Source: a virus. Taken from it: 64,000 nucleotides of DNA. A model generated the notes under the pieces. The model saw only the letters and a list, made by a program, of their open reading frames with translations, was not told the DNA's origin and did not search any database. Of this stretch, positions 1,961-64,000 are shown in pieces. The stretch is from IMG/VR virus record IMGVR_UViG_3300023174_000141, positions 12,064 to 76,063 of that record, one strand, 5' to 3'. The position numbers and the translations under genes are program-made. The stretch's first letter is position 1, and each line of letters starts with the position of its first letter.

Positions 1961-2193
1961 GCGACACGCGTGCGGGCGAGGCGGTGCTCGACCTCAGCGT
2001 AGGCGCGAGACTCCATCCAAGGCTGCGCGGCGATGACCTCCCACCCGTCGTCCTCGGTAGCGGCGCGGACCTCGTCCACCTCCACCACCAGCGTGCGGTA
2101 GGCCCGGTCGCCCACCGGGAGGAGGTCGTAGGTGTAGGTCACGTCGGCCTCGAAGATGCAGCCGTCGTTGTCGTAGAACGTGATCGTCATCAT
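1957..2193 (-). CDS. small acidic hypothetical protein
   Basis: RBS GGAG, GC3 bias, coupled to the next ORF. Confidence 0.75.
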   Translation of the reverse strand: MMTITFYDNDGCIFEADVTYTYDLLPVGDRAYRTLVVEVDEVRAATEDDGWEVIAAQPWMESRAYAEVEHRLARTRVA

Positions 2194-2251
2194 GGTGGTC
2201 TCCGTTTGCGTGCGGTGTTACAGCGTAGCTGTCGGGGGCCCTGCGTATTCT

Positions 2252-2491
2252 CTACGGCGCTTCGGCCATGAGACGCTCACCTGGGCGCGCCTCCACGGCG
2301 CTGAGCATGTCGAGGTAGATGAGGGCGCGCTTGAGGCCGTCCACCTTGCCCTTGGCGTAGTCGCCCTGCATCCCGGCGTAGGTGGCGGCGAACTCTTCGA
2401 GGTTGCGGCGGATGATCGCGACGCGCTGGCCGATGTACTTGAGGCGCATCTCGGGAGTGAGCAGGGCGAAGTATTCGGACTCGGTCATCAT
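2252..2491 (-). CDS. hypothetical protein
   Basis: ATG at 2491 follows GGAG and lies just downstream of the promoter at 2516-2544. Confidence 0.7.
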   Translation of the reverse strand: MMTESEYFALLTPEMRLKYIGQRVAIIRRNLEEFAATYAGMQGDYAKGKVDGLKRALIYLDMLSAVEARPGERLMAEAP

Positions 2492-2515
2492 GGCGTGCTC
2501 CGGGGTGGCGTGTAC

Positions 2516-2544
2516 TATGTAGCGGTGCGGTAAGGTGTCGTCAA
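2516..2544 (-). promoter_or_regulatory. sigma70-type promoter
   Basis: TTGACG-17 bp-TACATA on the minus strand. The spacer resembles that of the 5591-5619 promoter. Confidence 0.6.
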
Positions 2545-2644
2545 GCGGGAGCCGGAAGGGACGCACGTTGGAGGCGCTGTCGCGGGTCAACGTGCTCGGG
2601 CGCTCGAACGTGCGCCCCTTGCGGCCCCCGCTGGGGCCTGGGTT

Positions 2645-4066: not shown

Positions 4067-4149
4067 GGTGCGTTCTCCTGGGTGGTGCAGTCTACTATGT
4101 CGGGGTGGTATGAGTGTCGAGGGTGGCCGGGCATATTCTCGGCGGCCGG

Positions 4150-4446
4150 TTAGAAGCTGTCCGCCTGTGCTCCCCACAGGCAAGCCGCCGCGGCATTCGC
4201 ACACAGCGCGCCCTGCCGGGCGGCCTCGCGCATGTCGGCGTCACGACCGGCGGCGGCCCACCGCTCGGCGGCCACAGTCCACAGCCGGGCGGCCTCGACG
4301 TAGGCGCGGGCGGCGGTCTGGAGGAACCCCTCCCGGGCGTCGGCGTCGCCGACCTGGGCCCAGCGCTCGGCGGTGTCCTCCGCGGCGGTGGCCTCCGCCT
4401 CGCGGAAGTCGATCACGTCGGCGGGTGTTGCGTTGTAGTCGGTCAC
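4150..4446 (-). CDS. Ala-rich helical hypothetical protein
   Basis: RBS AGGAGGT before the GTG start. Confidence 0.7.
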   Translation of the reverse strand: MTDYNATPADVIDFREAEATAAEDTAERWAQVGDADAREGFLQTAARAYVEAARLWTVAAERWAAAGRDADMREAARQGALCANAAAACLWGAQADSF

Positions 4447-35000: not shown

Positions 35001-38000
35001 TCTCGCGCAACGCGCGGGACTATTATGGCGCGCAGGGCCTCCAGACGGGCATCTTCAGCGCGGCTCGTGACGGCGCCGTCTCGCGCGCCGTCGCGGTGGG
35101 CGACGTCCGCGTCGTCGTAGACCAGCCGAAGGTCGACGAGGCCTTCACCATCTACGTTCTCGTCGGCGACAAGCTCAGCCGCATCCAGGCCCCGCAGGGC
35201 CTCAACCCTGTGGCTGCGATGCGCCGTGGCGTCGACGAAGCCGAGAAGATGATGGAGGCGCGCGTCAAGGCGGGCCAGCCCGCCATCAAGGGCGCACCGG
35301 TCGCGGTCGTGTCGCAGCCCCAGATGTTGCCGACGCCTCGCGTGTTCCCGCCCGTTCCCGAGGAGATCGACCTCGACATCACGCAGGCGCTGCCCGCGAC
35401 GATGAGCGACGAGGACATCGCTCGCGCCGTCGAAGCGCGCGTGGCCTCCGGTGCGCCCGAGGAGATGGCCGCCGAGATGACCCAAGCGCTGCCCCCGCAG
35501 CGCCTCACTCCGGCGCAGCGCTCGGCTGGCTTCGAGCGTCTGTTCCAGAGCGGCGAGACCCCCGAGCCGACGGCGCGTCTCTTCGAGGAAGCCGAACCCA
35601 CGACTGAAGTGACCGCATCTCTCCTCGAGCCCACTCGGGAGATTCCGCGGCGTCGAATCCGCGCCGAACTGGTTCGTGGCGAGCAAGACATCCAGCGCCG
35701 TCTGGCCGAGGGTGAGGCCGCGTTCCAGCGCAACATCGAGGAGCCTCGTGCCCGCCTCGCCGAGCTCGAGCCCACGGCCAAGGTCGAGGCTCCCGCCGCG
35801 GAGCGCGTCGCCCCGGAGGTCGCCGAGGAGGCGCCTGTCGCGGCCGAGCCCGTGTTCCAGGTCGAGCCGAAGGCCGAGGCCCCTGCCGCGGCGGCTGCTG
35901 AGGCTGTTCCGCCCGCAGCCCGGGTCGAGGCCGCGGCGCCGCACCGCGGGTCTACGTTCTCCTCGGGCAAGGCCGCCCGCGACGCAGCGGAATCGGCCAA
36001 GGCGCAGACGACTGCCGCGCCGGAGTTCGCGTCGTGGTTCAGCGGGTCTCAGGTCGTCGACGACGCCGGCACCCCGCTGATCGTGTACCGCGGCGGAACC
36101 CCGGCAGATGTGATCCCCACCGCCGCCAAGGCGGGGTCGGTCCAACTCGGGCCGGGGGCGTACTTCGGCGGTGTCGGCCTCGCGGAGGAGTTCGCGGGGT
36201 TCCGTCCTGGCGGTGAAGTCGGGGCGTACTACCTGTCGCTGAAGCGCCCGTTCAACGAGATCGAGTCGGCGAAGACCGACCCCGAGCTGTTCAACCGGTT
36301 CATCGGAAAGATGCGCGACGCGGGAATCCCCGAGAAGACCCTGCGCGAGATCGACAGGCCCTACGCAGGCGTCCTCACGGATCTGTCCAAGGACTTGGCG
36401 AAGGTCCGCGGACTAACGGGCAGCGACGCGGCGTGGCGCGCGGCTGACGAGGTCAACGCTGCGCTGCGCGAGGTCGGCTTCGACGGCATCGTGGCTGACT
36501 GGAATCGCGGCAACGTGCAGTACGTCGCGTTCGATCCTGACCAGATTCGCAGCGCGACCACCAAGGTCGAAGAAGCAGTAAGCGCGGGCCCCGCTCAGCC
36601 CTCCGGTATCACGCCGGCGGCTGTCGCGCCCGTCGTTGCCGAAGAAATGTCGGAAGGTCTCAAGAAGGCGCTTGCCGACGTGAAGAAGCTCCGCTCGCCG
36701 AAGGCGACGGACAAGCTGCTCGGCGAGATCGCGGCGTCGACCCTGGCGCCGGCTGAGAAGGTCCGGGTCTACGAGAACCTCAGCTCTAAGCTCGAGACGC
36801 TCGCCGCGGCCGAGGAGGACGCCATCAAGCAGAGCGAGCTTGAGGGTCTTCTCAGTAAGGCGGCGGATGCAGAGTTCCGCGCTCGAGGGGACGCGGAGCG
36901 GGCGCTTCGTGAGAGCTTCGCGCAGGCTCCCGAGGAAGGCCGCGGTCTCAAGCAGATCAGCCCGACCGGCGACGTAAAGGGCGTCACCGAGCTCATGGCG
37001 GACGGCCGCAGCGTCATCATCCTGTTCCAGGGGGCGGACGCCTCGACGGTGCTCCACGAGGTCGCGCACGTCGTGCGCCGCAACGTCCTCGACCAGGACG
37101 ACATGAACGCCATCGCGAAGTGGGTGATGAGCCGCGGCGTCGGCATCACCGGCCATCGGTACGGCGAGTTCGAGGGGTCGCCCGCGGACGTCGAACAGGC
37201 CGAGGAGCTCTTCGCCAAGGCGTTCGAGGAGTACGTCCGCGCGGGTGTGGCGCCGAACAACCCGGCGGTCCAGTCGGCCTTCGACACGCTCAAGACGACC
37301 ATCGCGAACATCTACCGCGGCATCTCCGACCCGGTTATTGGAGTGAACCTCCAGCCGGAGGTCCGTCAGGTCTTTGACAAGCTCCTCTCCGAGACCTCGG
37401 AGCAGTCGGGCGCATCCATCAAGCAGGTCCTCCGCAAGGAGATCCTGGGCACAAACGCGCGCGAGGAGACCGGGTTCCTCGATGTCCTGTCGAAGGAGGC
37501 CCAGCGCAAGGGCATTCCGATGTCCTCGGTGGAGGACCTCGCCAAGCAGTTCACCACGGCCCAGCGCAACAAGGCCGCGGCGAACGCACCTCACGTCTCG
37601 TTCCCGGTGCCCGTGCTCGGGAAGAAGGACTGGAGCCTCGACGACCTGGCAGAGCTCCAGGCGGCGCGCGAGGTCGACACGGCCGTCGCTGCGGCGCGGA
37701 AGAAGGGCATCCTGCTCGACCTCACCGGCTCGAGGACCTCCGCCGCGGCGGTTCCCGAGGACGACGCGGTCGAGTCGCTGCGGAGCGCCATCGCGCACAA
37801 CGACGATGACAGCATGCTCACCGGTAAGGCGAAGCAGGCGTCGCGCGTTGTCGCCGCGACGTTCTTCGGCGGCGACGTGGTGGGCGAGAACGGCATGCGC
37901 GGGTTCCCGCCGGAGCTCCGCAACGCCATCAACACGACGGTCGCCGTCGTCGAGCAGAGCGTCGGCGACACCGTGTCGCTCACCAACGACGCGCTCGAGG

Positions 38001-40882
38001 TTGGTCGTAGCTCTGTGCTCTACCGCTACCTTGGTGGCGAGGGCGACATCCGTCGTCTGGCGGGCCGCCCCATCGTGTCGGCGGGCCACGACTACATGGG
38101 CTCAGTGCGTCAGATGTTCAAGCGGGCCATCGACTCGCTGAACCCGGAAGAGAAGAAGGGCCTCGAGCTGCTGTGCGACGCGCTCAACCAGCCGGCCGGC
38201 GCGCAGCGCAACCGCGCGCTGGAGCTACTGGGCTTCGACAACAACGGTGCGACGTTCCGCCTGGCTGACGCGGCGCGCCAGTCGACGCAGGACGCGGCAG
38301 TAAGCGCCGTGAACAAGCTCCTCTACCTCCAGACGAAGGAGAACGAGACGGACTTCGGCGCGGCGCTGGCGACGGCGATGCGCCAGGCGGTCGAGGCTTC
38401 TCCGACCCCGCGGCCCACGCACGAGATGCGCCTCGTTGAGGCGATGAGCTACATCGCCGGCAACACCAGCCGTGGCGGCGCACTCTTCTCGGGTAGCTCG
38501 GTCAACGCGGCGGAGGTCTTCCTCACCGACGTCGGGTCCATCTACAAGAGCGAAGAGGCGGCGCGTCGCGTCGCCGCGCTCGTGGGGGGCTACGGCTCGG
38601 CAGCACTCGGGAAGAACATCCTCGTCAAGCTCAACCTCGGCATCACCCCGGACGCCTACAAGGCGTTCACGAAGTGGATCGCGGGCGAGCAGTGGGACCC
38701 GCGCTTTACCGAGGAGATCCAGCGCGTCGTGGACCGCTACGGCTACAACCCCGAGTTCGTGGCCGACCAGGTGCTCGCGAGCGACATGTACATCCCGCGC
38801 ATGGCGCGTGAGCGTATGGGACAGGCCCTCGCCCGCTCGGTCTACCGCCCGACCACGGCGGTGACGGGTGGCGACGCGCTCAACATCACGTACCGCTACA
38901 TGAAGACCCGCATGACCCGTGGCTCGTTCGTGCTGCGCCCGAAGTACTTCATGGCGAACACGGTCGACCACTTCATCCAGATGGCGATCACCAACGGCTT
39001 CGGTGTGGCCGCGGTGTCGCTGACCCGCGTGCTGGCGCAGGACCTCATGGTGCTGCCGTTCTGGCAGCAGCTCGTGGACGCGGCGCAGAAGGTTCCGGTG
39101 GTCGGCGGCATGGTCCCGCGTGATGTGCTCGAGCGCACGCGAGCGATGCTCCAGAAGCAGGGCGACCGAGCCGCCGGTCACATCGGCAAGCTCTTCAGCG
39201 TGTCGAAGTACCGCATCGAGGTGAACCCCATCCTCGAGGGCGTTGACGGCGGCTTCGTGGTGGGTGGCAAGGTCTACCGCTACCGCGACATCCGCGACAT
39301 CGCGGTGCAGGAGCGCGTGTTCGCGTCTTACGACACGCGCCAGCTCGCCAACGCCATCGAGCGTGAGGGCGCGCTGTTCTTCTCTCCGACCCTCACGGGC
39401 TCGGGCGGGACGCTCACCACGGCTACGGGCAAGTCGCGCATCCGTGACTTCCTCGCCGACTGGCAGACCACGGTGTCGGACACCGCAGAAGCCTGGGGCG
39501 AGCGTGAGCGCCTCGGCGCGATGGTGTCGCTCATGGAGGTCGGCTACGACCCCCGCACGGCGGCGCGGCTCACGACGCAGGCCCTCTACGACTACAGTCA
39601 GTCCATGACGAAGGCCGACCGCTCGATTCTGGTGGGCATCATGTTCCCCTTCTGGGCCTTCCAGAAGAACGCCAACCAGCAGGTCTTCAACAACATCTTC
39701 AGCCCGTGGGGCGCGTACCGCATGATGTGCATCAAGCGGGCGCGTGAGCGCGGCATGGATGCGCTGGCGGAGGTCCTCTACAACGAGGTCGGGGGCGAGT
39801 ACGGTATCGACGTCGAGAGCATGCCGCCGGAGCTCCAGTCGTCCTACTACGCGGTCATCACGCGGTTCGAAGAGTCCTACCCGAACAGCGAGCCGCCTCC
39901 CGAGGCCAAGCGCGCGATGCGCATGCTGCTCGCGGGACGTGGTCGCATGGTGGAGGAGGGCAAGCTCGTCGAGCTCGCCGAGAACCTCCAGGATCTCCGC
40001 ATGAGCGGCGGGTTCGCGGACTTCCAGCGCTTCGCGGCCTTCGCCGTCGCGCGGCCCAGCAAGTCCGAGCGTCCGACCTACATGCGCGACCGCATCGGCG
40101 CCGCCATCCCGTTCCCCCGCACCGAGGCTGTGCGGATGTACTACTCGATGGCCGGCGACGACCACTCCTACATGGAGCTGTTCATCCCCGAGTCCTCCAT
40201 CGAGGCCGGCTTCCGCCACCTGACCCAGGTGAGCGCAGCGTACATGCTGATGGGGGCGGCTCCGGTCGACTTCCTGATGGGCGGCGACCTGACGCAGGGC
40301 GGCATGGACGAGGTCAAGCTCACTCGTGTGCTCGAGCCCATCGCTGACCCGGCGCGCTCCCCGCTCATCGCCCCGCTGCTCGCGGGCTCGGTCAGCGATG
40401 CGGTGCCGCCGCGCAAGGTCTCGAAGCGCCTCGCGGGCGCCGCCGAGGGTGTGACGAAGATCCACCCCTTCGTCGGGAAGATGATGGACGACGCCTTCGG
40501 GACGACGTTCATCCGCATCCCCGAGATCTCCGACCCCTTCGTCGTCGACCCCGACCGTGGTGAGCTGATGGGCCTGCCCCCCGAGGAGGCGCAGCGGATT
40601 CGCGAGCTCCAGAAGCAGTACCCCGATGTGGGTATCGTCAAGGACCAGCGCTACTACATCCCCGGCGGGACGTGGTCGGTGGCGTTCGACAACTCGCCGC
40701 TGGGCGAGCTCAACGCGCTCCTGCTGCGCTACGAAGCCAACCCGCTAGAGCGCTCCGACCTGCGCGGAGAAATCCTGAGCTGGTCGCGCGGGGCGCTCGG
40801 CCTTGATGTAGAACTGGTTTCGCCGCAGGCCGTCATTCGGCGTGAGGAGCCCACGAAGCTCGAGTCCACCAAGAAGATGTAG
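32030..40882 (+). CDS. giant polyvalent/ejection protein with ART-PolyVal-like and zincin (HExxH) domains
   Basis: F..WF.GS.VVD..G.PLIVY.G...G.YF...YLSLK.P...GFDGI...YVAF.P.QIRS (about 36023-36557). DASTVLHEVAH...EELFA.AFE.Y (HEVAH at 37055-37069). C-terminal LYDY...FPFW. Confidence 0.85.
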   Translation: MARNYEELKAALASEKAATQAPTAQQAVAPTPAAPVPAPAKSAGGIPSFLLPPAEPTKAKVQKSALPSSPKITAPAALRKAKLPTPAEVSAEVKAGAPRAQPGAAPQSPPAADIVLPPDLQKEVDWRKVYDASGVGVRTAKKNAAQLLGMEESELERISQAQGVDLDSIDKAKTKGRTFDEIMRAGRERGVLGFLPQDERLAVFRRTAETVEKAQRGEADDRPIELIKSGADRGLSGGGAAAGGMLGAAGGPIGAGVGAAAGSVLGSGGYMAAGTSTELPEVSKPGEYGYLASSLLAEALQKDPKASRIYDLYGRGVATGNTQQYITERTLDLLQRAGAAPGSAEAEELFPKFRRRAINEVLAYKTIGQWTPAITMQDVEVTEGAKAPGFFAALGPNVELVGINNKQQAVYRQESPLGVLFRVIDIPQEALVAKLEGQDAATGIQAGSNLFEYAIEHTKDESAYVRYPAMAAGFLASAFSPDLLLAGGAAQKAGKLAKRAYDVKKNGAKAIGLLETVAQARQAKDYVKATDAEKALRELSPGLADQLDRYDANAASLIELVDPNTDILREDMASLIGSQIPSSKEFAAERVFLHPSKRKEIVSGKLPKKHVPLPTYSGLFDTHDLMDRAAAAKQSYIANAPKSIDEYAQNFARGTTRDVLGKAVIGGAGVLTPAQIDEIADIVATHAPVALTDEQRFADLVRQDLKAHPEYGQAKYNIIRQVVYTPGKNKLRGRLDRKLTGIKGKTVVDLQTPDIALFDRVIAAIEKNNEARATGAALLREEIAKEAKLRVEPLNVFDDVSLKTPGGDPIRLSPGGVLWLRQVRNARPEMDFKDAYGAVTVVDQLVVAEAKKRGVDSFDLYRELLPTIRDATDAEILKYTGRPRGSAPPAAPAAPAAGGAPPAPAAPAAPAAPTAAAPAMPPALMGAPAVMTAPTAMTRQAAAAAATKLTAAAGLSPHGVLAAQFVAKLPVLMIEEDVTDLAQAKTILSDVSRNARDYYGAQGLQTGIFSAARDGAVSRAVAVGDVRVVVDQPKVDEAFTIYVLVGDKLSRIQAPQGLNPVAAMRRGVDEAEKMMEARVKAGQPAIKGAPVAVVSQPQMLPTPRVFPPVPEEIDLDITQALPATMSDEDIARAVEARVASGAPEEMAAEMTQALPPQRLTPAQRSAGFERLFQSGETPEPTARLFEEAEPTTEVTASLLEPTREIPRRRIRAELVRGEQDIQRRLAEGEAAFQRNIEEPRARLAELEPTAKVEAPAAERVAPEVAEEAPVAAEPVFQVEPKAEAPAAAAAEAVPPAARVEAAAPHRGSTFSSGKAARDAAESAKAQTTAAPEFASWFSGSQVVDDAGTPLIVYRGGTPADVIPTAAKAGSVQLGPGAYFGGVGLAEEFAGFRPGGEVGAYYLSLKRPFNEIESAKTDPELFNRFIGKMRDAGIPEKTLREIDRPYAGVLTDLSKDLAKVRGLTGSDAAWRAADEVNAALREVGFDGIVADWNRGNVQYVAFDPDQIRSATTKVEEAVSAGPAQPSGITPAAVAPVVAEEMSEGLKKALADVKKLRSPKATDKLLGEIAASTLAPAEKVRVYENLSSKLETLAAAEEDAIKQSELEGLLSKAADAEFRARGDAERALRESFAQAPEEGRGLKQISPTGDVKGVTELMADGRSVIILFQGADASTVLHEVAHVVRRNVLDQDDMNAIAKWVMSRGVGITGHRYGEFEGSPADVEQAEELFAKAFEEYVRAGVAPNNPAVQSAFDTLKTTIANIYRGISDPVIGVNLQPEVRQVFDKLLSETSEQSGASIKQVLRKEILGTNAREETGFLDVLSKEAQRKGIPMSSVEDLAKQFTTAQRNKAAANAPHVSFPVPVLGKKDWSLDDLAELQAAREVDTAVAAARKKGILLDLTGSRTSAAAVPEDDAVESLRSAIAHNDDDSMLTGKAKQASRVVAATFFGGDVVGENGMRGFPPELRNAINTTVAVVEQSVGDTVSLTNDALEVGRSSVLYRYLGGEGDIRRLAGRPIVSAGHDYMGSVRQMFKRAIDSLNPEEKKGLELLCDALNQPAGAQRNRALELLGFDNNGATFRLADAARQSTQDAAVSAVNKLLYLQTKENETDFGAALATAMRQAVEASPTPRPTHEMRLVEAMSYIAGNTSRGGALFSGSSVNAAEVFLTDVGSIYKSEEAARRVAALVGGYGSAALGKNILVKLNLGITPDAYKAFTKWIAGEQWDPRFTEEIQRVVDRYGYNPEFVADQVLASDMYIPRMARERMGQALARSVYRPTTAVTGGDALNITYRYMKTRMTRGSFVLRPKYFMANTVDHFIQMAITNGFGVAAVSLTRVLAQDLMVLPFWQQLVDAAQKVPVVGGMVPRDVLERTRAMLQKQGDRAAGHIGKLFSVSKYRIEVNPILEGVDGGFVVGGKVYRYRDIRDIAVQERVFASYDTRQLANAIEREGALFFSPTLTGSGGTLTTATGKSRIRDFLADWQTTVSDTAEAWGERERLGAMVSLMEVGYDPRTAARLTTQALYDYSQSMTKADRSILVGIMFPFWAFQKNANQQVFNNIFSPWGAYRMMCIKRARERGMDALAEVLYNEVGGEYGIDVESMPPELQSSYYAVITRFEESYPNSEPPPEAKRAMRMLLAGRGRMVEEGKLVELAENLQDLRMSGGFADFQRFAAFAVARPSKSERPTYMRDRIGAAIPFPRTEAVRMYYSMAGDDHSYMELFIPESSIEAGFRHLTQVSAAYMLMGAAPVDFLMGGDLTQGGMDEVKLTRVLEPIADPARSPLIAPLLAGSVSDAVPPRKVSKRLAGAAEGVTKIHPFVGKMMDDAFGTTFIRIPEISDPFVVDPDRGELMGLPPEEAQRIRELQKQYPDVGIVKDQRYYIPGGTWSVAFDNSPLGELNALLLRYEANPLERSDLRGEILSWSRGALGLDVELVSPQAVIRREEPTKLESTKKM

Positions 40883-52100: not shown

Positions 52101-52129
52101 TTGACAGGGTGGTTGAGGGTCGATACCTC
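52101..52129 (+). promoter_or_regulatory. probable replication-operon promoter
   Basis: Perfect TTGACA at 52101, but the -10 element is imperfect. Confidence 0.45.
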
Positions 52130-52150
52130 TGGAGCACCACCGAGAGGACC

Positions 52151-54904
52151 ATGAGCATCGCCAGCATGTGGGACCAACCCCACTACACCTACAGAGTCGC
52201 CCCCGACTTCGCCCAACACGCCGTCGCCGTAGAGACGCACTGTCCCGGCACACTCGCATGGGCGGTGCGCGGTAGGAAGCGGTATCGGCTCACCCGTAAC
52301 GAGTGGCCCGAGGATGGGCTACCCGCCTGCGTAGAGATTTACGCACCCGTGCACGCGGCCTTCGTCGTCGAGCACTTCCTCAACGGATGGGGCGTCGCGT
52401 TCGACGCGGACGAGCGCATGGGCGCGGCGGCAGTTCTGCCGTGGCCCACGACCCCGGAAGCGCTGGACCGCTGCGCTCGCCAAGGGGCGGACCTCATCGC
52501 GCAAGAAGTGAAGCTGGGCGAGCTCAAGCCGCACGTCGCCGAGATGGCGACGCCCTACCAGAAGCGCAGCGCGGCCTGGGCGGCGAGCCGTCCGTGGGTC
52601 ATGAACGTGTGGCCGTGCGGCTGCCTCGCTGGCGACACCCGTATCGCGGTGAACCGCGCCGGGAAGGGCTATGTGACCACGGTCGCCAAGCTGGTGAAGA
52701 TGACCCGTGAGGGCCGACGCCACGACCGCGACATCAAGACGCGGGCGCAGTCGGTGGACGCGGATGGCTACCGCCGACTGAACGAAGTCACTGACGCTTA
52801 CGAGACCGGCGTCAAGCCTCTTCTCAGGCTGGTGGCGGAGTCGGGGCACTCGATCCGCGCGACCGCGGATCACCGGTTCCTGCGCCCCGACGGCGAGTAC
52901 ACAAGGCTCGGAGACCTCTCGGTAGGCGACGAGGTCGCGATTATCGAGACCGGGCGGAAGCAGGGCCGCACGGCGGAGAAGGCCGGCAACCCGTACTACC
53001 CGCGCGTCGGTCGCATGGACCTGCACCCCTACGCGGTGAAGTGGGTGTCGCCGCGGAAGAACCGTCCGTCGAGCGCGCGGCACGCGCAGGTACCGGCGCA
53101 CCGCCTCGTGATGGAGGCGCACCTCTCGGGTGTGTCGCTGGAAGACTTCATCGGCTGTGTCAGGTCGGGCCAGCACGACGGCCTCGTGTTCCTCGACCCC
53201 GAGACGCATCACGTCCACCACATCAATGAGGACAAGCGGGACTACCGGCTCGAGAACCTCGAGGTGCTGGAGGCACGAGAGCACGCTCATCGGCACGGGG
53301 TCGATGGCGGCTGGCGTGGGGTCCTGCCCAAAGCGGAGTTCACCCCCATCGTCAGCATCGAGCCGGATGGCGAGGAGATGACCTACGACCTCACCATGAC
53401 CGAGGAGATGCCGAACTACGTCGCTGACGGCTTCGTCACCCACAACAGCGGCAAGACCGTGGGCGCGCTCATCGACGCGCTGACGCGCGAGGGCACCATC
53501 CTCGTCATCTGCCCGGCCAAGGCCCGCCACGTCTGGTGGACGCAGGTCCAGCAGTACACGAACATCCTCCCGTGGCGCCTGCTGCCGGAGAGCGAGCGGC
53601 GGAAGAAGGACATGACCTGGCAGCAGTACGAGGCGCACTGCGCCGAGACGGGCCAGCGCAAGTTCATCGTCGTCGGGGCCGAGAGCCTCAACGACAACGC
53701 CGAGTTCGTGATGAACCTCAGCCCCGAGGTGCTCATCCTCGACGAGCTGCACATCCACGGGCAGAGCAAGCGCTGGAAGGCCGTGCAGGAGAAGGACGGC
53801 AAGGTCGGCTTCACCCGCCGCCAGACCGCCTCGGGCGACAAGGACGCGTGGTCGGTCGCCATCATGGACATCAGCCGCCTGCCGAGCCTGAGCCTGCGCG
53901 TGGGCCTCACCGCCACGCCGCTCGACGATGGGCGCCCCAAGCGCCTCTGGGCGCAACTCGACCTGCTCACTCCTGGCGGCTTCGCGCATAGCTACCGCCG
54001 CTTCGCGGAGCGCTACTGCGACGCGGTGCCGAACCCCTACGGCGGCATCGACGACAAGGGCAGCAGCAACATCGAGGAGCTCCGCGCCCGCTGCTCGTTC
54101 TTCACGCACGAGGTTCCCTACAGCGAGAGCCACTCGAGCCTGCCCCCGACGCGCATCCAGGTCGTCTACCTGCCGGTCTCCGCGCAGGACAAGCCGGAGC
54201 GCTACGATGACGCGCAGACTTTCGATCAAGCCATCAAGCAGCTTGCGCGTCAGGCCCGGGGAGAGTATGAAGATGTGCCGGCGCGGGAACGTCTCATCGA
54301 GGCGCGTCTCGCGGAGGCGAGCAGTCGAAAGCGTAGCTACGTCGTCGCCGAGGTCCTCGAAGGGCTGAAGGGCGGGGGCAAGGTCATCGTGTTCACTGCG
54401 CGCCGCCGGGAAGCCGAGCGCTGGGGTGAAGCGATCCGAAAGGCCGCGAGCTCCAGCGACGAGGTGAAGAACGCGACGGTCTGGGTTGGGCACGGCGGCG
54501 TAAGCGAGCCGGAGCGCAACGACATGATCGACGGGTTCCGAAGCAGCGCCGGTCCCTGCTGTTTGGTGGGGACCGGCCAAGCCTTCGGGATCGCCGTGGA
54601 CGGGATGCAGACCGCCGACCTCGCCATCTTCGCCATGCTTCCCTGGAAGCCCGGTGACTTCCTTCAGTGGCGTGGCCGGTTCGACCGGCATGGCGGACGG
54701 GCCACGCTGCTGAAGGTCGTCGTCGCTGCGGCGACCTACGACGAGCGCGTCGTCGAGATCCTCACCGACAAGTTCGGGCCCATCGAGCAGTTCCTCGAGG
54801 CCGACGAGCTCGACGGCATGGGCGAGAAGCTGCTCGGCATGGAGGACCGCGAGGCCCTCGTGGACGACGTCGTCGGCAAGCTGTTCGTCATGGACGAGGA
54901 GTAG
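52151..54904 (+). CDS. SNF2-like SF2 helicase/translocase, intein-containing
   Basis: Walker A PCG|SGKT split by the intein. LILDELH, GLTATP and Q..GR..R.G motifs. Confidence 0.9.
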   Translation: MSIASMWDQPHYTYRVAPDFAQHAVAVETHCPGTLAWAVRGRKRYRLTRNEWPEDGLPACVEIYAPVHAAFVVEHFLNGWGVAFDADERMGAAAVLPWPTTPEALDRCARQGADLIAQEVKLGELKPHVAEMATPYQKRSAAWAASRPWVMNVWPCGCLAGDTRIAVNRAGKGYVTTVAKLVKMTREGRRHDRDIKTRAQSVDADGYRRLNEVTDAYETGVKPLLRLVAESGHSIRATADHRFLRPDGEYTRLGDLSVGDEVAIIETGRKQGRTAEKAGNPYYPRVGRMDLHPYAVKWVSPRKNRPSSARHAQVPAHRLVMEAHLSGVSLEDFIGCVRSGQHDGLVFLDPETHHVHHINEDKRDYRLENLEVLEAREHAHRHGVDGGWRGVLPKAEFTPIVSIEPDGEEMTYDLTMTEEMPNYVADGFVTHNSGKTVGALIDALTREGTILVICPAKARHVWWTQVQQYTNILPWRLLPESERRKKDMTWQQYEAHCAETGQRKFIVVGAESLNDNAEFVMNLSPEVLILDELHIHGQSKRWKAVQEKDGKVGFTRRQTASGDKDAWSVAIMDISRLPSLSLRVGLTATPLDDGRPKRLWAQLDLLTPGGFAHSYRRFAERYCDAVPNPYGGIDDKGSSNIEELRARCSFFTHEVPYSESHSSLPPTRIQVVYLPVSAQDKPERYDDAQTFDQAIKQLARQARGEYEDVPARERLIEARLAEASSRKRSYVVAEVLEGLKGGGKVIVFTARRREAERWGEAIRKAASSSDEVKNATVWVGHGGVSEPERNDMIDGFRSSAGPCCLVGTGQAFGIAVDGMQTADLAIFAMLPWKPGDFLQWRGRFDRHGGRATLLKVVVAAATYDERVVEILTDKFGPIEQFLEADELDGMGEKLLGMEDREALVDDVVGKLFVMDEE
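52622..53446 (+). mobile_element. intein (275 aa) with HNH homing endonuclease
   Basis: Begins CLAGDT, contains block B TADH, ends YVADGFVTHN with Ser+1. Internal AHRLVM...VHHINEDKRD.RLENL. Confidence 0.9.
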
Positions 54905-57153: not shown

Positions 57154-57768
57154 ATGTCGTTCAACATCTCCGGCGCCAGCTTCAAGGGCGTCTCCACCCT
57201 CGGCGCCTCCCAGCCCGAGGCCGGCTACTACGAGGTCTCCGGCCTCCAGATCGAGCAGAAGGCCGGCGACAAGGCTGACGCCCGTCGCTTCCACGTCGAG
57301 TTCCCGAACGGGTTCAAGATGTTCGAGTTCCTCCACCTCCCGGTGGACGGCCTGGACAAGAAGGCGTTCGGCGGTCGCCTCGCTGCGATGAAGACCATCC
57401 TCGCCAGCTTCGGCTTCAGCAACGAGGACATCGAGAGCAACGACATCTCCGACGCATGGTTCGTGTCGGCGAGCAACGGCGGGCGCAAGGCCTACGTCGA
57501 GTTCGTGCCCGGCCAGCAGGGCGTGCAGGGCAGCTACGCCCGCATCAACAAGTTCCTCACGAAGGAGCAGTACGAGAAGGCCGTCGCGTCGGGCGCCAAG
57601 CCCGTGTCCCGCGATGGTGGCGGTGTCCCCCAGACCCGCCCGTCTGTCCCCGGCACCGTTCCCGTCGCTCCCTCCGCGGCGGCTGGTCGTCCGGTCAGCA
57701 CGGTGGCCCCGGCGCCCGCCGAGTCCATGCGACTGCCCCCGCCCCCCGCGGTCGGAGTGGCGCGCTGA
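57154..57768 (+). CDS. putative single-stranded DNA-binding protein
   Basis: P.AG.Y.V N-terminus, Y.RI.KF, Pro/Ala tail. Strong codon bias, located after the Sak4-like gene. Confidence 0.65.
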   Translation: MSFNISGASFKGVSTLGASQPEAGYYEVSGLQIEQKAGDKADARRFHVEFPNGFKMFEFLHLPVDGLDKKAFGGRLAAMKTILASFGFSNEDIESNDISDAWFVSASNGGRKAYVEFVPGQQGVQGSYARINKFLTKEQYEKAVASGAKPVSRDGGGVPQTRPSVPGTVPVAPSAAAGRPVSTVAPAPAESMRLPPPPAVGVAR

Positions 57769-57906: not shown

Positions 57907-57936
57907 GTGATACCATCGGCACGACCGAGGCACACG

Positions 57937-58365
57937 ATGCTCCCTGCGCTGCTGAACCTGTGGGCTGACCTGCGCGCTGCGCACCACCTCTACTGGACGC
58001 TGCACTGGCAGAGCCGTGGGCCCTCGTTCTACGGGGACCACAGCCTCTTCGCCGGGCTCTACCAGGAGAAGGCGGAGCAGGTCGACGCGCTGGCGGAGAT
58101 CATCGCGGCCCACTACGGCAGCGACAAGCTCGACCCCATCAAGGCGTGGCAGGAAGCCCTGCCGAAGATCGAGCATCTGGTCGGGTGCCAGAGCGCGGTG
58201 AAGATCGCCGAGTACGTCATCGGCTGCTGCGAGAGCACCAACGAGCTCATCCTCGAGAGCGGCGAGTGCCCCTACCCCGCGGGTCTCAGCAACTTCGTGA
58301 GCGACCTGTCCACGAAGAACATCAAGGACCTGTACATGCTCAAGCAGCGCTTCGGCGCGAAGTAG
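57937..58365 (+). CDS. dps: Dps/ferritin-like protein
   Basis: HW..RG.SF...H.LF..LY......D.LAE ferroxidase signature. Confidence 0.85.
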   Translation: MLPALLNLWADLRAAHHLYWTLHWQSRGPSFYGDHSLFAGLYQEKAEQVDALAEIIAAHYGSDKLDPIKAWQEALPKIEHLVGCQSAVKIAEYVIGCCESTNELILESGECPYPAGLSNFVSDLSTKNIKDLYMLKQRFGAK

Positions 58366-58628: not shown

Positions 58629-58669
58629 GAGGTCTTGACTTGACGCTTCGGTAGAGATACTGGAGCGGC

Positions 58670-59107
58670 ATGGACACCGACCTCATGTTCTCCTCGGCCA
58701 CGGACCAGTGGGCGACGCCGCAGGCGTTCTTCGACCAGTGGAACGAGGTCTTCCGGTTCACGCTCGACGTGTGCGCGGACGCCGACAACGCGAAGTGCGC
58801 TCGGTACTTCACGCGCGAGGACGACGGGCTGGCACAGGACTGGAGCCTGGACGTGTGCTGGATGAACCCGCCCTACGGCCGAGAGATCGGGCGCTGGGTG
58901 GCGAAGGCGTACCGGGAGAGCCGGGCCGGCGCCACTGTCGTCTGCCTGCTCCCCGCGCGCACTGACACGGCGTGGTGGCATGACTACGTCATCCCGATGG
59001 CGAAGGTGACGTTCATCCGCGGCCGGCTCAAGTTCGGGACGGCGACGAACAGCGCCCCGTTCCCGTCGGCCGTCGCTGTCTTCTACCCGCCGAAGGTGGC
59101 CTCGTGA
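58670..59107 (+). CDS. dam: phage DNA N6-adenine methyltransferase (T1/HP1 Dam-type)
   Basis: D.W.TP..FF, FTLDVCA, DGL...W, WMNPPY, LLPARTDT.WW and FIRGRLKF motifs. Confidence 0.92.
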   Translation: MDTDLMFSSATDQWATPQAFFDQWNEVFRFTLDVCADADNAKCARYFTREDDGLAQDWSLDVCWMNPPYGREIGRWVAKAYRESRAGATVVCLLPARTDTAWWHDYVIPMAKVTFIRGRLKFGTATNSAPFPSAVAVFYPPKVAS

Positions 59108-62100
59108 GCTACGACCCCCGCGCCTGTGGCGCCCGCTGCGACGTGTGCCCGCTGGGCCCCAACGGCTCTCACCGCACCGGGGCGTGGCAGCCTGTTGCAC
59201 CTGAGATGCATGAAGGCGCGACCATCCTCGCCGTGGCCGAGATGCCGGGGCACGACGAGGCTAGCTTCGGCCGTCCCCTGTCGGGGCGCAGCGGCAGCGA
59301 GTGGAACCTCGCGCTGCTCGCCGCCGGGAAGAAGCGCACCGACGTCGACCTCACGCACGTCGTGGCGTGCTCGGCTGGCGCGGACAAGAACGCCTGGGAG
59401 AAGCTGCACAAGGCTCTCGATAAGGAGAACAGGCGGCGACTCGCACAAGCGCAACCCCTCATCCCCGATCCTACCTCGTGCTGCCGACCCAGGCTACTCG
59501 CTGAGACAGATCGTTACGAGCACATCATCACGCTGGGACGGGCTGCGGCCAACGCCCTGACGGCGAAGGCGCAGTCGGTGTTCGCCCTGCGCGGCGGCCC
59601 GGTGTGGGTGGACGAGAACTACCAGGCCCTCATGCAGACGCCTCTGGCGGGCGAGCAGAAGCCCGAGGGAGCGGTGCGCAAGGTCTTCCCTACCCTGCAT
59701 CCCGGCTTCGTCCAGAAGAGCCCTGGGTGGCGCACGACGATGGTGGCGGACCTGTCCAAGGCGCTGCGCTGGTTCGCAGGCCAGCTCCGGTGGACCGAGC
59801 CGGTGCGCTACCTCAACCCGACGCCCGACGAGCTCTGGCGCTTCCTCCACAACATCGAGGCCCCGTTCTGGGCATACGACCTCGAGACCGACGGCATCGA
59901 GGCGCTGACCTGTCAGGTCCGCTCCATCGCCATCGCGCACCCCGACCTCAACCACTTCGGCCGCGCGCTGCGCGAGGGTCAGATCGAGGCGCTGCGCTGC
60001 GGGGTCGTGGGGCTCAACATCCTCAGCGGCGACGGGGTGACCCGCTTCTACTCGCCCGAGGACGAGGCGCGCATCCACGACATCCTGCGCGAGTTCTTCC
60101 TCGACCCGACGAAGGTCAAGGTCGGGCACAACTGCCTCTACACGGGCACGCCGGTCATCCTCGCCGACGGCACATCGGCCCCCATCGAGAAGCTCGTGCG
60201 GTCGAAGTACGCGGGCGAGGTCATGGCGCTCGACCCGTGGGGTCGCATCGTCAAGGCTCGTGTGACCGACTGGTTCCGGCAGCGCGTCGAGAACCAGGAG
60301 TGGCTAGTCATCCGCCGAGAGGACGAGAAGGGCGGCGCCCGAGGGCTCACGCTGACCCCCGACCACGAGGTCTACACGCCGTCGGGTCGGGTGCGCGCGG
60401 ATCAGCTCACGGTAGGTGACAGCATCCTCTCCGACGAGTTCGAGTACTCGTGGGACGAACAGCAGGCCATCCTGGGCACGTTGCTCGGCGACAGCACGGC
60501 GCGGGCCTACTCGTCTCGCATGGTCGACGGCAAGGTTGTCTTGCACCGGCCCGACATGGCGGAGGCGGCGAAGGCCGTGCTTCGTGGCGGCCACGCCTCT
60601 CGCGAGCTCACGCACGAGAAGGCGCAGTGGCTTCGTGGGTTGACCGTGGCCTCCACCGTGGCGAAGGGTGGCTACAAGCCGGGCGCCGAGGCGCACACCT
60701 ACCGCACCTCGGCGAACCGGCAGGTCGCCGAGCTCGCTCGGCTCGTGTACGACGGAGCGAAGCGGCGCCTGCGGCCCGCAGTGCTCGACGCGCTGGGTCC
60801 GGTTGGCCTCGCGTGGCTCTACGCCGACGACGGGTTCAAGCACAAGCGAGGCGACAGGCGTCGCGAAGCGATGCTGATCGCGACGTGCGGGTTCCCGCGC
60901 GAGGACATCGAAGCCGCCCGTGACTGGTTCACCGGAAGGTTCGGCGCCACGGCCATCACAGGCAACGGGAGCCTGCGCCTCGGCGTCGAGGCGTCGCAGA
61001 GGTTCGCGGCGCACATCGCGCCGTACCTCCTTCCGGCCGCGCGCTACAAGCTCCCGAAGGGAGAGTGGCGTGAGTTCGCCGGGTTCCCGCGGCGCGCCGA
61101 CATGCCGCTGCCCGTTCGCGTCGAGAGCATCGAGCGGTTCGTCCCGGCGCGCGACACTGCGCGGCGGCGCGCCGAAGCCGACACGCGCTGGTGCATCCAG
61201 ACCACCGAGGGCAACTTCCTGACCGGCTTCGGCTTCGTCAAGAACTGCGGGTACTACGACCGGCAGGTCGTCGAGCAGTGGCTCGGCGTCACGCCGAAGC
61301 CCATCATCGACACGCTGTTCTCGGCGCGCTTCCGGGCGCCGGACCTGCCGAAGGGGCTGAAGTCGGTGGGCTCCGTGCTCGCCGACGTGGACCGCTGGGA
61401 GACGACCGAGAAGGGCGAGAGCCTCGCGCACGGCAAGGTCGACGACTGGGACCGCCTCGCCTACAACTGCACCGACAGCGCGGTGAACGCGCGCATCACG
61501 GTGCCGCTGCTCGACGCTGCGGAGGAGGCCGGCGCCTTCCGCGACCTGCCCGAGGAGCTCCGCCCGCCGGGCTGGGAGAGCCGCCGCTGGGACCTCCACG
61601 AGGTCGACCACGCCACGCAGGACATGTGCGTGAACCTCCACAAGATCGGCGTCTACGTCGACCAGGAGGCGCGCTTCAAGATGGAGATCGAGACGCGAGC
61701 CAGCGTCGAGAAGCGCGAGAAGAACCTCACGACGCTCGCGGTCGCAGTGGGCCTCGCCAAGCTCGACCTCAAGAGCGCCGGCGCCAACGACGACTCGGAC
61801 GTCGAGGGCATCCGGCCCGGTAGCGCCGACCAGATTCGCGACCTCCTCTACGAGAACTGGAAGCTGGGCATCCCGCCGAACATGGAGGCCCGGGACTTCT
61901 ACACCGAGTCCGGCATGCCGGGCACCGGCGACAAGGTGCTGCGTGGCCACCTCGCGGGCGGCCGACTGACGAAGCCGCAGGAGGACTTCATCCGCGAGCT
62001 GCGCCTGTACCGCCGGGAGAAGAACAAGATCCTCGGCACCGTGCTGCTTCCCCTAAACCTTCGCGCCCACGATCCGAAGAAGGGCATCATCTGGCATCAC

Positions 62101-63051
62101 GACGGCCGCGTGCGCTCCACCTGGAACGCGCACGTCACGGCCCCGGGGCGCTTGTCTTCGAGCGGACCCAACCTCCAGAACATCGGCAGTCGGAAGGGGC
62201 AGGGCAAGCTCAAGACCCTGTTCGCGGCGCAGCCCGGTCACCTCCTCGTCGGGGCGGACCTCGACCAAGCGCACCTCCGCATCACGGCGAGCTACTGGAA
62301 GATCCCGCTGCTGCTCGAGTGCTTCAGCGAGGGGAAGGACCCGCACAACACGCTGGCGTACCAGGTCTTCGGGGACAAGTTCAAGGCCGCGGACGGCTGG
62401 GGACCCGAGGGGTTCAGCCTCTACCGCAAGCCGCCGGGCGGCATGGCGAAGGCGATGCGCGACGTCATGAAGACATTTCGTTACGCGTCAATTTATTGGG
62501 CCGACCCGATGACGGTCTGGCAGGTGCTGACCTCGACCGAGGCCGACAACGGCGAGATGCCGTACCTGCACATGACCTCGAAGGAGGTGCGCCACTTCCA
62601 CGAGACGTGGCTCAAGACCGAGCCCGAGTGGATGCAGGCGTGGGACGCGATGCTCTCCATCTACCGCCACCAGGGGTACATGGAGGAGCCGGTCTTCGGC
62701 CGGCGCTCCGGCAACCTCACGGACGGGAAGAAGAACGAGGTGGTCAACTTCCCCATCCTCGCGGCGGAGACGAGCATCATGCGTGTCGCCGAGCAGCACA
62801 TCGTCCATGCCTTCCCGTGGGACCTCGACCGCCGGCTCGGGCTCATCCACCAGTGCCACGACTCCGTCGCCATCGAGGTGAAGGCGCCGCCGGGCCTCGA
62901 GAAGTGGAAGCCGACGAAGGGCGAGCCGCTGCCGCCGGAGCTCGAGCGGATGCGCAAGACCCTCGAGGAATGCATGACTGTGCGGGTTCCTGGCTGGGAA
63001 GTGCCATGCACCGCCGAGGCATCTGTCGGCAGGAATCTCAAAGAGGCTTGA
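59104..63051 (+). CDS. polA: family A DNA polymerase with N-terminal UDG-like domain and 3'-5' exonuclease, intein-containing
   Basis: UDG family-4-like C..C, E.PG..E...G.P..G.SG, HP. Exonuclease DLET and HN|CGYYD. Polymerase GRLSS..PNLQN, motif A D..Q..LR, motif B R...K...Y...Y, motif C HDS. Confidence 0.93.
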   Translation: MSYDPRACGARCDVCPLGPNGSHRTGAWQPVAPEMHEGATILAVAEMPGHDEASFGRPLSGRSGSEWNLALLAAGKKRTDVDLTHVVACSAGADKNAWEKLHKALDKENRRRLAQAQPLIPDPTSCCRPRLLAETDRYEHIITLGRAAANALTAKAQSVFALRGGPVWVDENYQALMQTPLAGEQKPEGAVRKVFPTLHPGFVQKSPGWRTTMVADLSKALRWFAGQLRWTEPVRYLNPTPDELWRFLHNIEAPFWAYDLETDGIEALTCQVRSIAIAHPDLNHFGRALREGQIEALRCGVVGLNILSGDGVTRFYSPEDEARIHDILREFFLDPTKVKVGHNCLYTGTPVILADGTSAPIEKLVRSKYAGEVMALDPWGRIVKARVTDWFRQRVENQEWLVIRREDEKGGARGLTLTPDHEVYTPSGRVRADQLTVGDSILSDEFEYSWDEQQAILGTLLGDSTARAYSSRMVDGKVVLHRPDMAEAAKAVLRGGHASRELTHEKAQWLRGLTVASTVAKGGYKPGAEAHTYRTSANRQVAELARLVYDGAKRRLRPAVLDALGPVGLAWLYADDGFKHKRGDRRREAMLIATCGFPREDIEAARDWFTGRFGATAITGNGSLRLGVEASQRFAAHIAPYLLPAARYKLPKGEWREFAGFPRRADMPLPVRVESIERFVPARDTARRRAEADTRWCIQTTEGNFLTGFGFVKNCGYYDRQVVEQWLGVTPKPIIDTLFSARFRAPDLPKGLKSVGSVLADVDRWETTEKGESLAHGKVDDWDRLAYNCTDSAVNARITVPLLDAAEEAGAFRDLPEELRPPGWESRRWDLHEVDHATQDMCVNLHKIGVYVDQEARFKMEIETRASVEKREKNLTTLAVAVGLAKLDLKSAGANDDSDVEGIRPGSADQIRDLLYENWKLGIPPNMEARDFYTESGMPGTGDKVLRGHLAGGRLTKPQEDFIRELRLYRREKNKILGTVLLPLNLRAHDPKKGIIWHHDGRVRSTWNAHVTAPGRLSSSGPNLQNIGSRKGQGKLKTLFAAQPGHLLVGADLDQAHLRITASYWKIPLLLECFSEGKDPHNTLAYQVFGDKFKAADGWGPEGFSLYRKPPGGMAKAMRDVMKTFRYASIYWADPMTVWQVLTSTEADNGEMPYLHMTSKEVRHFHETWLKTEPEWMQAWDAMLSIYRHQGYMEEPVFGRRSGNLTDGKKNEVVNFPILAAETSIMRVAEQHIVHAFPWDLDRRLGLIHQCHDSVAIEVKAPPGLEKWKPTKGEPLPPELERMRKTLEECMTVRVPGWEVPCTAEASVGRNLKEA
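60133..61245 (+). mobile_element. intein (371 aa) with LAGLIDADG endonuclease
   Basis: Begins CLYTGT, contains TPDH, ILGTLLGDS and LAWLYADDG, ends GFVKN with Cys+1. Confidence 0.9.
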
Positions 63052-63077
63052 CGCTTCGGTAGGTACAGCGATAGGAT
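63048..63077 (+). promoter_or_regulatory. sigma70-type promoter
   Basis: TTGACG-18 bp-TAGGAT, followed by the RBS AGGAGG. Confidence 0.6.
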
Positions 63078-63177
63078 GAGTTCACCACCAAGGAGGACTC
63101 ATGACCGAACTGCTGGACATCACGATGTGGCTGCTGGACAGGCTCGCGGACCTCGCGCGCCTCGTCGGGAGGTGGCC

Positions 63178-63411
63178 GTGACCGGCGACGTGAACTGGCT
63201 CCGCGCCGAGGTGGCGTGGCTCCGCACGCCGATCCTGCACACCGAGCCGTGCGCCAACTGCGGGCACACGAAGTTCCGCCACCCAGAGTGTCGGGACATC
63301 CGCACGGACAACGACATGACGAAGTGCTGGGGCCGCGGGTTCGACTGCGACGACTGCCCCGAACGCTGCGAGAGGTTCGTCCGATTCACGCACGATGGGG
63401 GGAAGCCATGA
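63178..63411 (+). CDS. small Cys/His-rich (zinc-binding) protein
   Basis: CANCGH...H...C...C..C..F. GTGA overlap with a 26-aa upstream ORF (63101-63181). Confidence 0.6.
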   Translation: MTGDVNWLRAEVAWLRTPILHTEPCANCGHTKFRHPECRDIRTDNDMTKCWGRGFDCDDCPERCERFVRFTHDGGKP

Positions 63412-63887
63412 GCCTGCCGCGCCTGGACTTCCGGTCTGTCGATGTGACGCTGCCTGCGAACAACCCCGGCGACATTGCTGCCGCCATCGAATCGGTGAGT
63501 ACCATGAGCGAGCCTGTCTTCATCACCCTCCGTGCCCGTGACGTGAAGCCATACCACTACGGTCTGTGGAGCAGCGTGGGCGGCGATCCGTTCGCGAACT
63601 GCATCTGCTCGGTGAAGTGGTCGGACGACGGCGCGCACCTGTGGTTCATGCTCGAGAGCCACAACTTCTACAAGGTGGAACCGGACGAGGAGATCGAGGT
63701 CGTTGAACTCACGACCAACCGCGCGTGGGCGACCACGCGGGCGAAGTACGCCGACTGGACGCTACCGCCCGCTCCGCGTCGCGTCATGCGCTACGGCCAC
63801 GCGTATCGCTGGTCACCGGACGGCCCCGAGTGCGACATTTGTGGCTCCGTCCATCAACCGAACCTCGAACCGTTGGAGGAGCCATGA
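63408..63887 (+). CDS. hypothetical protein
   Basis: ATGA coupling, C-terminal CDICG. Confidence 0.65.
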   Translation: MSLPRLDFRSVDVTLPANNPGDIAAAIESVSTMSEPVFITLRARDVKPYHYGLWSSVGGDPFANCICSVKWSDDGAHLWFMLESHNFYKVEPDEEIEVVELTTNRAWATTRAKYADWTLPPAPRRVMRYGHAYRWSPDGPECDICGSVHQPNLEPLEEP

Positions 63888-64000
63888 CCATCGACCTCGA
63901 CGCCTTGGACGCCAGCATCGCCGAGGGCGAGAAGAAGAACTTCTTCGTGGCGCCCATCGTGAAGGACCTAATCGCGGAGCTGCGGGAGGCCCGCAAGGAG
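63884..64000 (+). CDS. hypothetical protein, partial
   Basis: RBS GGAGGAG, MTIDLDAL...LIAELREAR runs off the window. Confidence 0.6.
   Translation, partial: MTIDLDALDASIAEGEKKNFFVAPIVKDLIAELREARKE

Follow-up and report, generated by a model that had tools for sequence, protein, structure and literature searches.

A predicted UDG-fused family A replicase of an uncultured lake-water phage with histidine at the steric-gate position

Family A DNA polymerases (PolA) are distinguished by a small set of strongly conserved active-site residues, among which Glu710 (E. coli Pol I numbering throughout) is the textbook ribonucleotide gate. Here we describe a polymerase in which this residue is histidine. 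It is encoded in a window of 64,000 nucleotides, bases 12064-76063 of the 76,063-bp IMG/VR virus contig IMGVR_UViG_3300023174_000141, by a single open reading frame (ORF) at window positions 59104..63051 on the plus strand. The product, 1315 amino acids (aa) in length, joins a uracil-DNA glycosylase (UDG)-like domain, a 3'-5' exonuclease split by an intein, and a family A polymerase. Judged from sequence comparison, it is probably an ordinary, proofreading replicase specific for deoxynucleoside triphosphates (dNTPs), belonging to a ~73-kb, high-GC uncultured lake-water phage that is distantly N4-like, with a rebuilt sugar gate and minor-groove floor. The gate residue has changed together with two further positions, as a set that is found in a very large group of uncultured phages.

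The ORF begins with a GTG codon overlapping the stop codon of dam, and it translates stop-free. Membership in family A is indicated by the Pfam profile PF00476 (DNA_pol_A), which matches residues 903-1313 with 100.9 bits against a cut-off of 34.3; PF03167 (UDG superfamily) matches residues 38-208 with 32.6 bits, and PF03161 (LAGLIDADG endonuclease) residues 454-604 with 27 bits. Removal of the intein leaves a polymerase of 944 aa, and most orthologues are ~944 aa long. The AlphaFold model of a 99%-identical intein-free homologue (P0002) has a predicted local distance difference test score (pLDDT) of 90.5 and a predicted template modeling score (pTM) of 0.88. Its best matches in the PDB are Klenow and Bst Pol I, with a template modeling (TM) score of ~0.8 over the target, as expected of a Klenow-type fold. 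The features of the gene are as follows.

59104..63051, plus strand: whole gene, UDG-like domain, intein-split 3'-5' exonuclease and family A polymerase (Pfam)
59104..59808, plus strand: N-terminal family-4 UDG-like domain, residues 1-235 (alignment to T. thermophilus UDG 1ui0)
59878..59895, plus strand: Exo I motif DLETDG, with D259 and E261 (invariant columns)
60133..61245, plus strand: predicted intein, residues 344-714, 371 aa, with LAGLIDADG homing endonuclease (PF03161, phrog_11023)
61246..61260, plus strand: C-terminal half of Exo II, CGYYD, with D719 (homologue alignment)
61462..61476, plus strand: Exo III motif YNCTD, with Y787 and D791 (homologue alignment)
62143..62151, plus strand: PGR, equivalent of the TGR motif; Pro1014 stands for Thr666, and Arg1016 (R668) is kept
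62257..62280, plus strand: motif A, DLDQAHLR; catalytic Asp1052 (D705), and His1057 (codon 62272-62274) at the steric gate E710
62458..62499, plus strand: motif B/O-helix, RDVMKTFRYASIYW; R754, K758 and Y766 kept, with Arg at 761, Tyr at 762 and Trp at 767
62746..62769, plus strand: motif 6, NFPILAAE; Asn1215 (N845) kept, and Leu1219 (codon 62758-62760) for Q849
62857..62865, plus strand: motif C, HDS; His1252, catalytic Asp1253 (D882), and Ser1254 for E883

Active-site replacements and their joint switch

The protein was aligned to Taq and E. coli Pol I by HMMER, and the numbering was verified on the actual E. coli polA sequence. Against Taq Pol I, ADLDQAHLR is paired with LDYSQIELR, NFPILAAE with NMPVQGTA, and HDS with HDE. 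Six replacements follow: E710 to H1057, Q849 to L1219, E883 to S1254, F762 to Y1127, N761 to R1126 and G767 to W1132. D705, D882, R754, K758, Y766, R668, N845 and H881 are intact. The catalytic set of family A (D1052, D1253, R1119, K1123 and Y1131) is invariant in the 121 closest relatives, whose identity ranges down to 57%; the gate Glu, the TGR Thr and the motif 6 Gln expected of the family are absent, with His1057, Pro1014 and Leu1219 in their places. His710, Leu849, Arg761, Tyr762 and Ser883 are likewise invariant in these relatives. The replacements are therefore not a matter of chance, and the invariance reflects purifying selection.

The initial annotation, which had aligned the protein to Klenow by eye, listed the same replacements at 62257-62865; all of them are present, and this interval runs exactly from D1052 of motif A to S1254 of motif C. 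The change at the TGR motif, the intein and the chimeric contig start described below were not among its observations. Co-occurrence as a clade of His, Trp and Leu, which it suggested examining, holds for His and Leu. It does not hold for Trp767, as this position is variable in the 121 relatives (W in 80, A in 27, G in 12, K in 2). Nor is HDS distinctive of this enzyme: position 883 is S, A or Q in His-gate and Glu-gate relatives alike, and phage N4 gp39 has HDA, so that Ser883 is not diagnostic for His-gate enzymes. Since gp39 is a replicative polymerase, loss of E883 is evidently tolerated in the UDG-PolA supergroup. T7 RNA polymerase also has HDS, and we considered the motif as a mark of an RNA-polymerase-like enzyme; this was dropped, because HDS/HDA extends across the supergroup, with the N4 DNA polymerase among its carriers, and because the enzyme has a proofreading exonuclease.

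The wider pattern was examined in position tables covering 150 representatives of 50%-identity clusters from an exhaustive HMMER search, the 121 closest proteins, and 149 IMG/VR loci. Thr666 of the TGR motif, E710 and Q849 switch jointly to Val/Pro, His and Leu (rarely Ile or Phe), with zero mixed states among the 150 cluster representatives or the 149 loci. The two states are both well populated, with 75 H+L/I/F versus 20 E+Q rows among the cluster representatives used for the tree, and 81 (V/P,H,L) versus 61 (T/S/G,E,Q) among the IMG/VR loci. In a scan for group-specific columns, 666, 710 and 849 were the cleanest switches. The TGR Thr position is Pro in the present enzyme and Val in most relatives; Arg761, found in 54 of the 75 His-type rows, is frequent but not strict. 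The V/P-H-L set is thus common to a very large group of uncultured phages.

A quick maximum-likelihood tree (LG+G4, 100 polymerase domains), in which many deep forks are weakly supported, places 74 of the 75 His-type rows in one clade, with a Shimodaira-Hasegawa-like approximate likelihood ratio (SH-aLRT) of 94. This clade is nested in a grade of Glu-type UDG-PolAs, and the N4-like enzymes and E. coli Pol I fall outside that grade. A metagenomic representative, P0269, carries the Val, His, Leu triad inside a well-supported Glu-type clade (99*). Because of this nesting, the full triad was assembled at least twice, and the number of its origins is best given as "two or more".

A structural basis for the joint switch is suggested by a review of Bst Pol I, which describes Q797, R615, E658 and D830 (Klenow Q849, R668, E710 and D882) as near neighbors with electrostatic interactions, and assigns the reading of the terminal base pair to R615 and the Gln (PMC10520511). 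The covariation would fit a buried polar Thr-Glu-Gln cluster exchanged for a His packed between aliphatic residues.

Selectivity of the predicted replicase and competing explanations

Five relatives with an estimated completeness of 95-100% and genomes of 67-74 kb have one PF00476 match each, namely the His-type UDG-PolA, and they also carry an orthologous primase-helicase downstream. Since it is the sole polymerase in five near-complete relatives, the His-gate UDG-PolA can be taken as the replicase. The earlier view that the enzyme is not dead is borne out by the same observation, together with its intact catalytic residues and the invariance of its variants across the clade.

In the account that we favor, the intein would splice out to leave a family-4 UDG-like domain, a three-motif proofreading exonuclease and a Klenow-fold polymerase. 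The polar cluster beneath the primer terminus and the incoming sugar (Thr666, Glu710, Gln849) would have been swapped as a co-evolved unit for Pro/Val, His and Leu, as an alternative packing for the same job. The imidazole may still fill the space needed by a 2'-OH, and Tyr762 may reinforce sugar discrimination. Arg668 would still read the minor groove at the primer end, and the template-strand contact of Gln849 would be lost. The DNA copied is expected to be unmodified apart from Dam methylation. Dideoxynucleotides (ddNTPs) would perhaps be accepted more readily, and template-side checking of mismatches and lesions may be somewhat altered.

Several points weigh against this account. The penultimate residue of the intein is Lys rather than the usual His, and its splicing is predicted. 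The proposed contact among 666, 710 and 849 in this enzyme is drawn from the covariation and the Bst literature. Histidine differs from Glu in its chemistry, as it is able to act as a hydrogen-bond donor to a 2'-OH and titrates near neutral pH, and retained exclusion of ribonucleoside triphosphates (rNTPs) is what we infer. The bases of the DNA may be modified by an enzyme of an unrecognised family, as many ORFs have no known family. Finally, that the complete triad arose convergently a second time points to selection for some property and not to drift alone. The triad might be seen as a natural alternative sugar gate and minor-groove sensor, selected at least twice, that alters what the replicase accepts (for example abasic or uracil-derived lesions, or sugar- or minor-groove-altered nucleotides); we hold this to be possible, but rather doubtful.

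A related explanation couples relaxed template-side minor-groove checking in cis to the UDG domain, with the V/P-H-L floor aiding extension over abasic sites made by the UDG. The domain is putatively active, as it keeps the catalytic motifs of SP15-like and SPO1-like UDG-PolAs: the iron-sulfur (Fe-S) cysteines C12, C15, C89 and C126/127 are present, and AEMPG (Glu46) and LHP (His199) correspond to GEGPG and FHP in the alignment with T. thermophilus UDG, although the uracil-stacking Phe of GRPF is Leu. SP15-like UDG-PolAs excise deoxyuridine (dU) in front of the fork and use deoxyadenosine (dA) to bypass the resulting abasic site (Missoury et al., 2026; PMC13697223), which may be the best available model for the present UDG domain, and Klenow uses Q849 to read the template base at the terminal pair (PMC10520511). 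However, the UDG Glu and His motifs are kept in 40/85 His-type and 27/46 Glu-type representatives; motif retention is thus patchy in both, and UDG status does not follow gate type. Pfam and PHROG scans of essentially all ORFs of the genome found no PolX, ligase or apurinic/apyrimidinic (AP) endonuclease, unlike SP15-like phages, and the SP15-like study describes enzymes with the canonical gate in view and reports no His gate (PMC13697223). We consider this coupling unlikely.

It is very unlikely, in our estimate, that the His gate serves to admit ribo- or 2'-modified nucleotides, for instance for priming or for mixed RNA-DNA. Position 710 is the known sugar gate of family A, the hydrogen-bonding capacity of His noted above would suit a 2'-OH, and the triad arose twice. 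Yet His matches Glu in bulk, a primase-helicase is encoded by the phage itself, and the proofreading exonuclease is retained. Tyr762 is moreover invariant, and the equivalent change in Bst, F710Y, nearly abolishes the use of rCTP (PMC10520511). Because of Tyr at 762 and the bulky His, ribonucleotide use would be disfavored.

The initial annotation had proposed an undescribed modified-DNA replication system, that is, a replicase adapted to a non-canonical base or to hypermodified DNA. Known phage base modifications sit in the major groove, whereas the residues changed here face the minor groove and the sugar. In favor of the proposal are the many ORFs without a known family and the UDG-PolA fusions of SPO1- and SP15-like phages, which accompany thymine-replaced genomes (PMC10201439; PMC13697223). 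In the same genome scans, no thymidylate synthase/hydroxymethylase, deaminase, dUTPase-type enzyme, TGT/DpdA, PurZ or glycosyltransferase was found, and Dam was the only nucleotide-modification enzyme. PF00303, PF01702 and PF00709 (thymidylate synthase/hydroxymethylase, TGT/DpdA and PurZ) are absent from the five complete relatives, while control genomes responded. The Glu-type sister phages possess the same module of SNF2 helicase, PD-(D/E)XK exonuclease, Sak4 and SbcC-like protein. Standard shotgun libraries from several freshwater studies also yield assemblies of these genomes at normal depth, in contrast to the hypermodified YerA41 and RP13 genomes, which needed sequencing via RNA-seq (PMC13697223). 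The proposal thus finds no support, and we regard this kind of adaptation as highly improbable.

That the enzyme is a specialised second polymerase beside a canonical PolA in the same genome can hardly be upheld, although the contig opens on the final 386 codons of a canonical PolA (ADYSTLELC, NSHFQG, IHDEF), cut at base 1. This start is an assembly chimera. Contig bases 1-3189 are 97.8% identical to contig Ga0315902_10000568, which belongs to another phage and carries that phage's full 638-aa exonuclease+PolA; the two diverge after 3189. In the likely source run, from lake water and with 96% of the sampled words, bases 1-3148 lie in one 3149-base Logan contig at a depth of 6.74, and the backbone from base 3512 onward stands at a depth of 28-30. 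The last 111 bases of the contig are a diverged copy (88%) of bases 3091-3201, and an element of 95 bases immediately following the polymerase gene is a diverged copy (85%) of bases 3000-3094. The canonical PolA gene is absent from ~80 related loci and from 5 complete genomes, and 76,063 - 3,189 gives 72.9 kb, the size of the relatives. On this evidence from identity, depth, repeats and relatives, two polymerases in one genome were dropped, and the true genome is ~72.9 kb, circularly permuted or terminally redundant.

The first 3189 bases, which hold the PolA C-terminus and three small genes, come from a different phage that is roughly 4.5-fold rarer. The chimeric join lies at a shared element of ~190 nucleotides, and the phage's own copy of it forms the contig end (window 63090-64000). 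A circular joining of contig end and start into one gene was also considered and rejected, since the last ORF (MTIDLDAL...) is homologous to the gene at genome positions 3037-3330 and not to a PolA N-terminus. Genome positions 3190-4200 appear as many short Logan contigs with numerous alternative joints (e.g., 3219 to 3796) in all four runs. The pattern is consistent with a hot spot of cassette shuffling immediately downstream of the polymerase module, at the site of the chimeric join.

Inteins and neighboring genes

The predicted intein interrupts Exo II after GHN and before (C)GYYD, with the junctions GHN|CLYTG and FVKN|CGYYD and Cys715 as the +1 residue. Intein-free orthologues read GHNAGYYD at the insertion point. 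The features by which an intein is recognised are present, namely Cys1, an Asn at the C-terminus followed by a nucleophile at +1, the endonuclease domain, and orthologues that lack exactly this insertion. The intein recurs in P0014 at 78% identity, with its ends conserved. In the relatives P0025-P0027 and P0117, inteins lie inside motif B (FRYA|SIY) and right after TGR (GRLSSSGP|NLQN), as expected for inteins homing into essential active-site motifs. An HNH intein is also found in the SNF2-type helicase at window 52109-54904 (plus strand), with Pfam Intein_splicing at residues 218-446 and HNH_3 at 364-393. With the helicase and the polymerase each bearing an intein, two replication genes of this phage are interrupted.

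Besides this helicase, the genome scans recovered a PD-(D/E)XK exonuclease, a Sak4-like annealase, a ferritin/Dps-like protein, Dam, an SbcC-like ATPase, a primase-helicase, DUF3310, and lysis and structural genes. A 204-aa ORF at window 57154-57768 (plus strand) has no Pfam or PHROG family; a protein atlas gave a DUF669-like lead of the single-stranded DNA-binding protein (SSB) type, and the product is probably an SSB partner of the neighboring Sak4. In a gene-content comparison this ORF occurs in 36/36 His-type versus 1/26 Glu-type loci, and the primase-helicase only, or almost only, at His-type loci. A functional tie of either gene to the His gate was nevertheless set aside as a lineage effect, because the His-type loci are all close kin.

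The ferritin/Dps-like gene (window 57907-58365, plus strand; PF00210, phrog_3636 "DNA binding protein") is located within the replication module, directly upstream of dam, and is present in only about one third of related loci. A direct repeat of 16 nucleotides, CTTGACGCTTCGGTAG, occurs at window 58639-58654, before dam, and at 63047-63062, over the polA stop. It contains TTGACG, followed by GATACT or GATAGG at promoter-like spacing, and it is for this reason probably a promoter common to both sites and not the scar of a recombination event. A 2950-aa ORF at window 32030-40882 (plus strand) has one weak PHROG match of unknown function; no support was found for it as a virion RNA polymerase, which could be expected beside an N4-like replication module.

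Relation to known polymerases and significance

On the favored account, a very large clade of replicative phage polymerases functions without the gate Glu, the TGR Thr and the motif 6 Gln; the three changed as a locked set, and the set arose again. This offers enzymologists a natural experiment in rebuilding sugar discrimination and minor-groove checking, and polymerase engineers a new scaffold. It also warns annotators that a "missing steric gate" does not equal a dead or exotic enzyme.

Family A polymerases were reclassified by Czernecki et al. (2023; PMC10201439), who defined the N4-like enzymes as cluster #17, with an inactive UDG and Phe at B3, and noted other, unclustered UDG-PolAs. Crucial catalytic residues were strictly conserved in their 19 clusters, and one cluster (APEX 2) lacked the TGR Thr. 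Their motif logos mark the gate Glu (A2), the Thr of TGR and the Gln of motif 6 as conserved positions, with no gate exception noted in the text (PMC10201439). The SP15-like group, in which the UDG is active and the genomes are T-modified, was added by Missoury et al. (2026; PMC13697223). A His gate is not described in the main text of either paper (PMC10201439; PMC13697223), and our search of the literature on E615H/E710H/E658H/E480H and on phage and virioplankton steric gates found no description of one. By tblastn against 50,697 cultured/GenBank phage records, no close relative was found; the best hit had 31% identity for the polymerase domain as a whole and 46% for the motif A region. The best similarity to a cultured phage is that to N4-like roseophages, at 31% identity over half of the polymerase domain. 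The six phages examined (N4, a roseophage, phCDa, Rctr197k, Orla and Tlacuache) all have Glu at the gate.

The present enzyme shares with N4 gp39 and cluster #17 an N-terminal family-4 UDG-like domain fused to exonuclease and PolA, and a motif C without Glu883. The two phages also have a similar set of helicase, exonuclease, Sak4-like and primase genes, and genomes of ~70-75 kb. Unlike the present enzyme, N4 has Glu710, Gln849 and Phe762, and its UDG has lost the catalytic residues and the Fe-S cysteines. The UDG catalytic loss and the Phe at B3 (762) that define cluster #17 are not seen here, where Glu46, His199, the Fe-S cysteines and Tyr762 stand instead. With the SPO1- and SP15-like UDG-PolAs (YerA41, phiLo), it shares UDG catalytic motifs fused in cis to a replicative PolA (PMC13697223). 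Those phages, however, have thymine replaced or hypermodified and encode PolX and ligase, and their polymerases, of 1142-1306 aa, have two large inserts and a C-terminal domain (PMC13697223). The present enzyme, at 944 aa when spliced, has neither the inserts nor the C-terminal domain and is best matched in the PDB by plain Pol I large fragments; no PolX, ligase or thymidylate-synthase-like match was found in the genome scans either.

Klenow, Bst BF and KlenTaq resemble it in fold (TM ~0.8), in the catalytic Asp pair, in the O-helix Arg, Lys and Tyr, and in Arg668 and Asn845, but differ in that their Thr666, Glu710, Gln849 and Glu883 are all replaced here and that a UDG domain and an intein are added. 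The Glu-gate UDG-PolAs of uncultured phages (such as P0170 and P0222), which form the sister grade, have the same three domains, 35-45% identity, HDS/HDA, Tyr762 and the same helicase, exonuclease and Sak4 neighbors; these, on the other hand, keep Thr/Ser666, Glu710 and Gln849, and mostly have Gln, not Arg, at 761. By these comparisons, the enzyme departs from the defining details of both named subgroups; it is related to the UDG-PolA replicases and appears to work like them.

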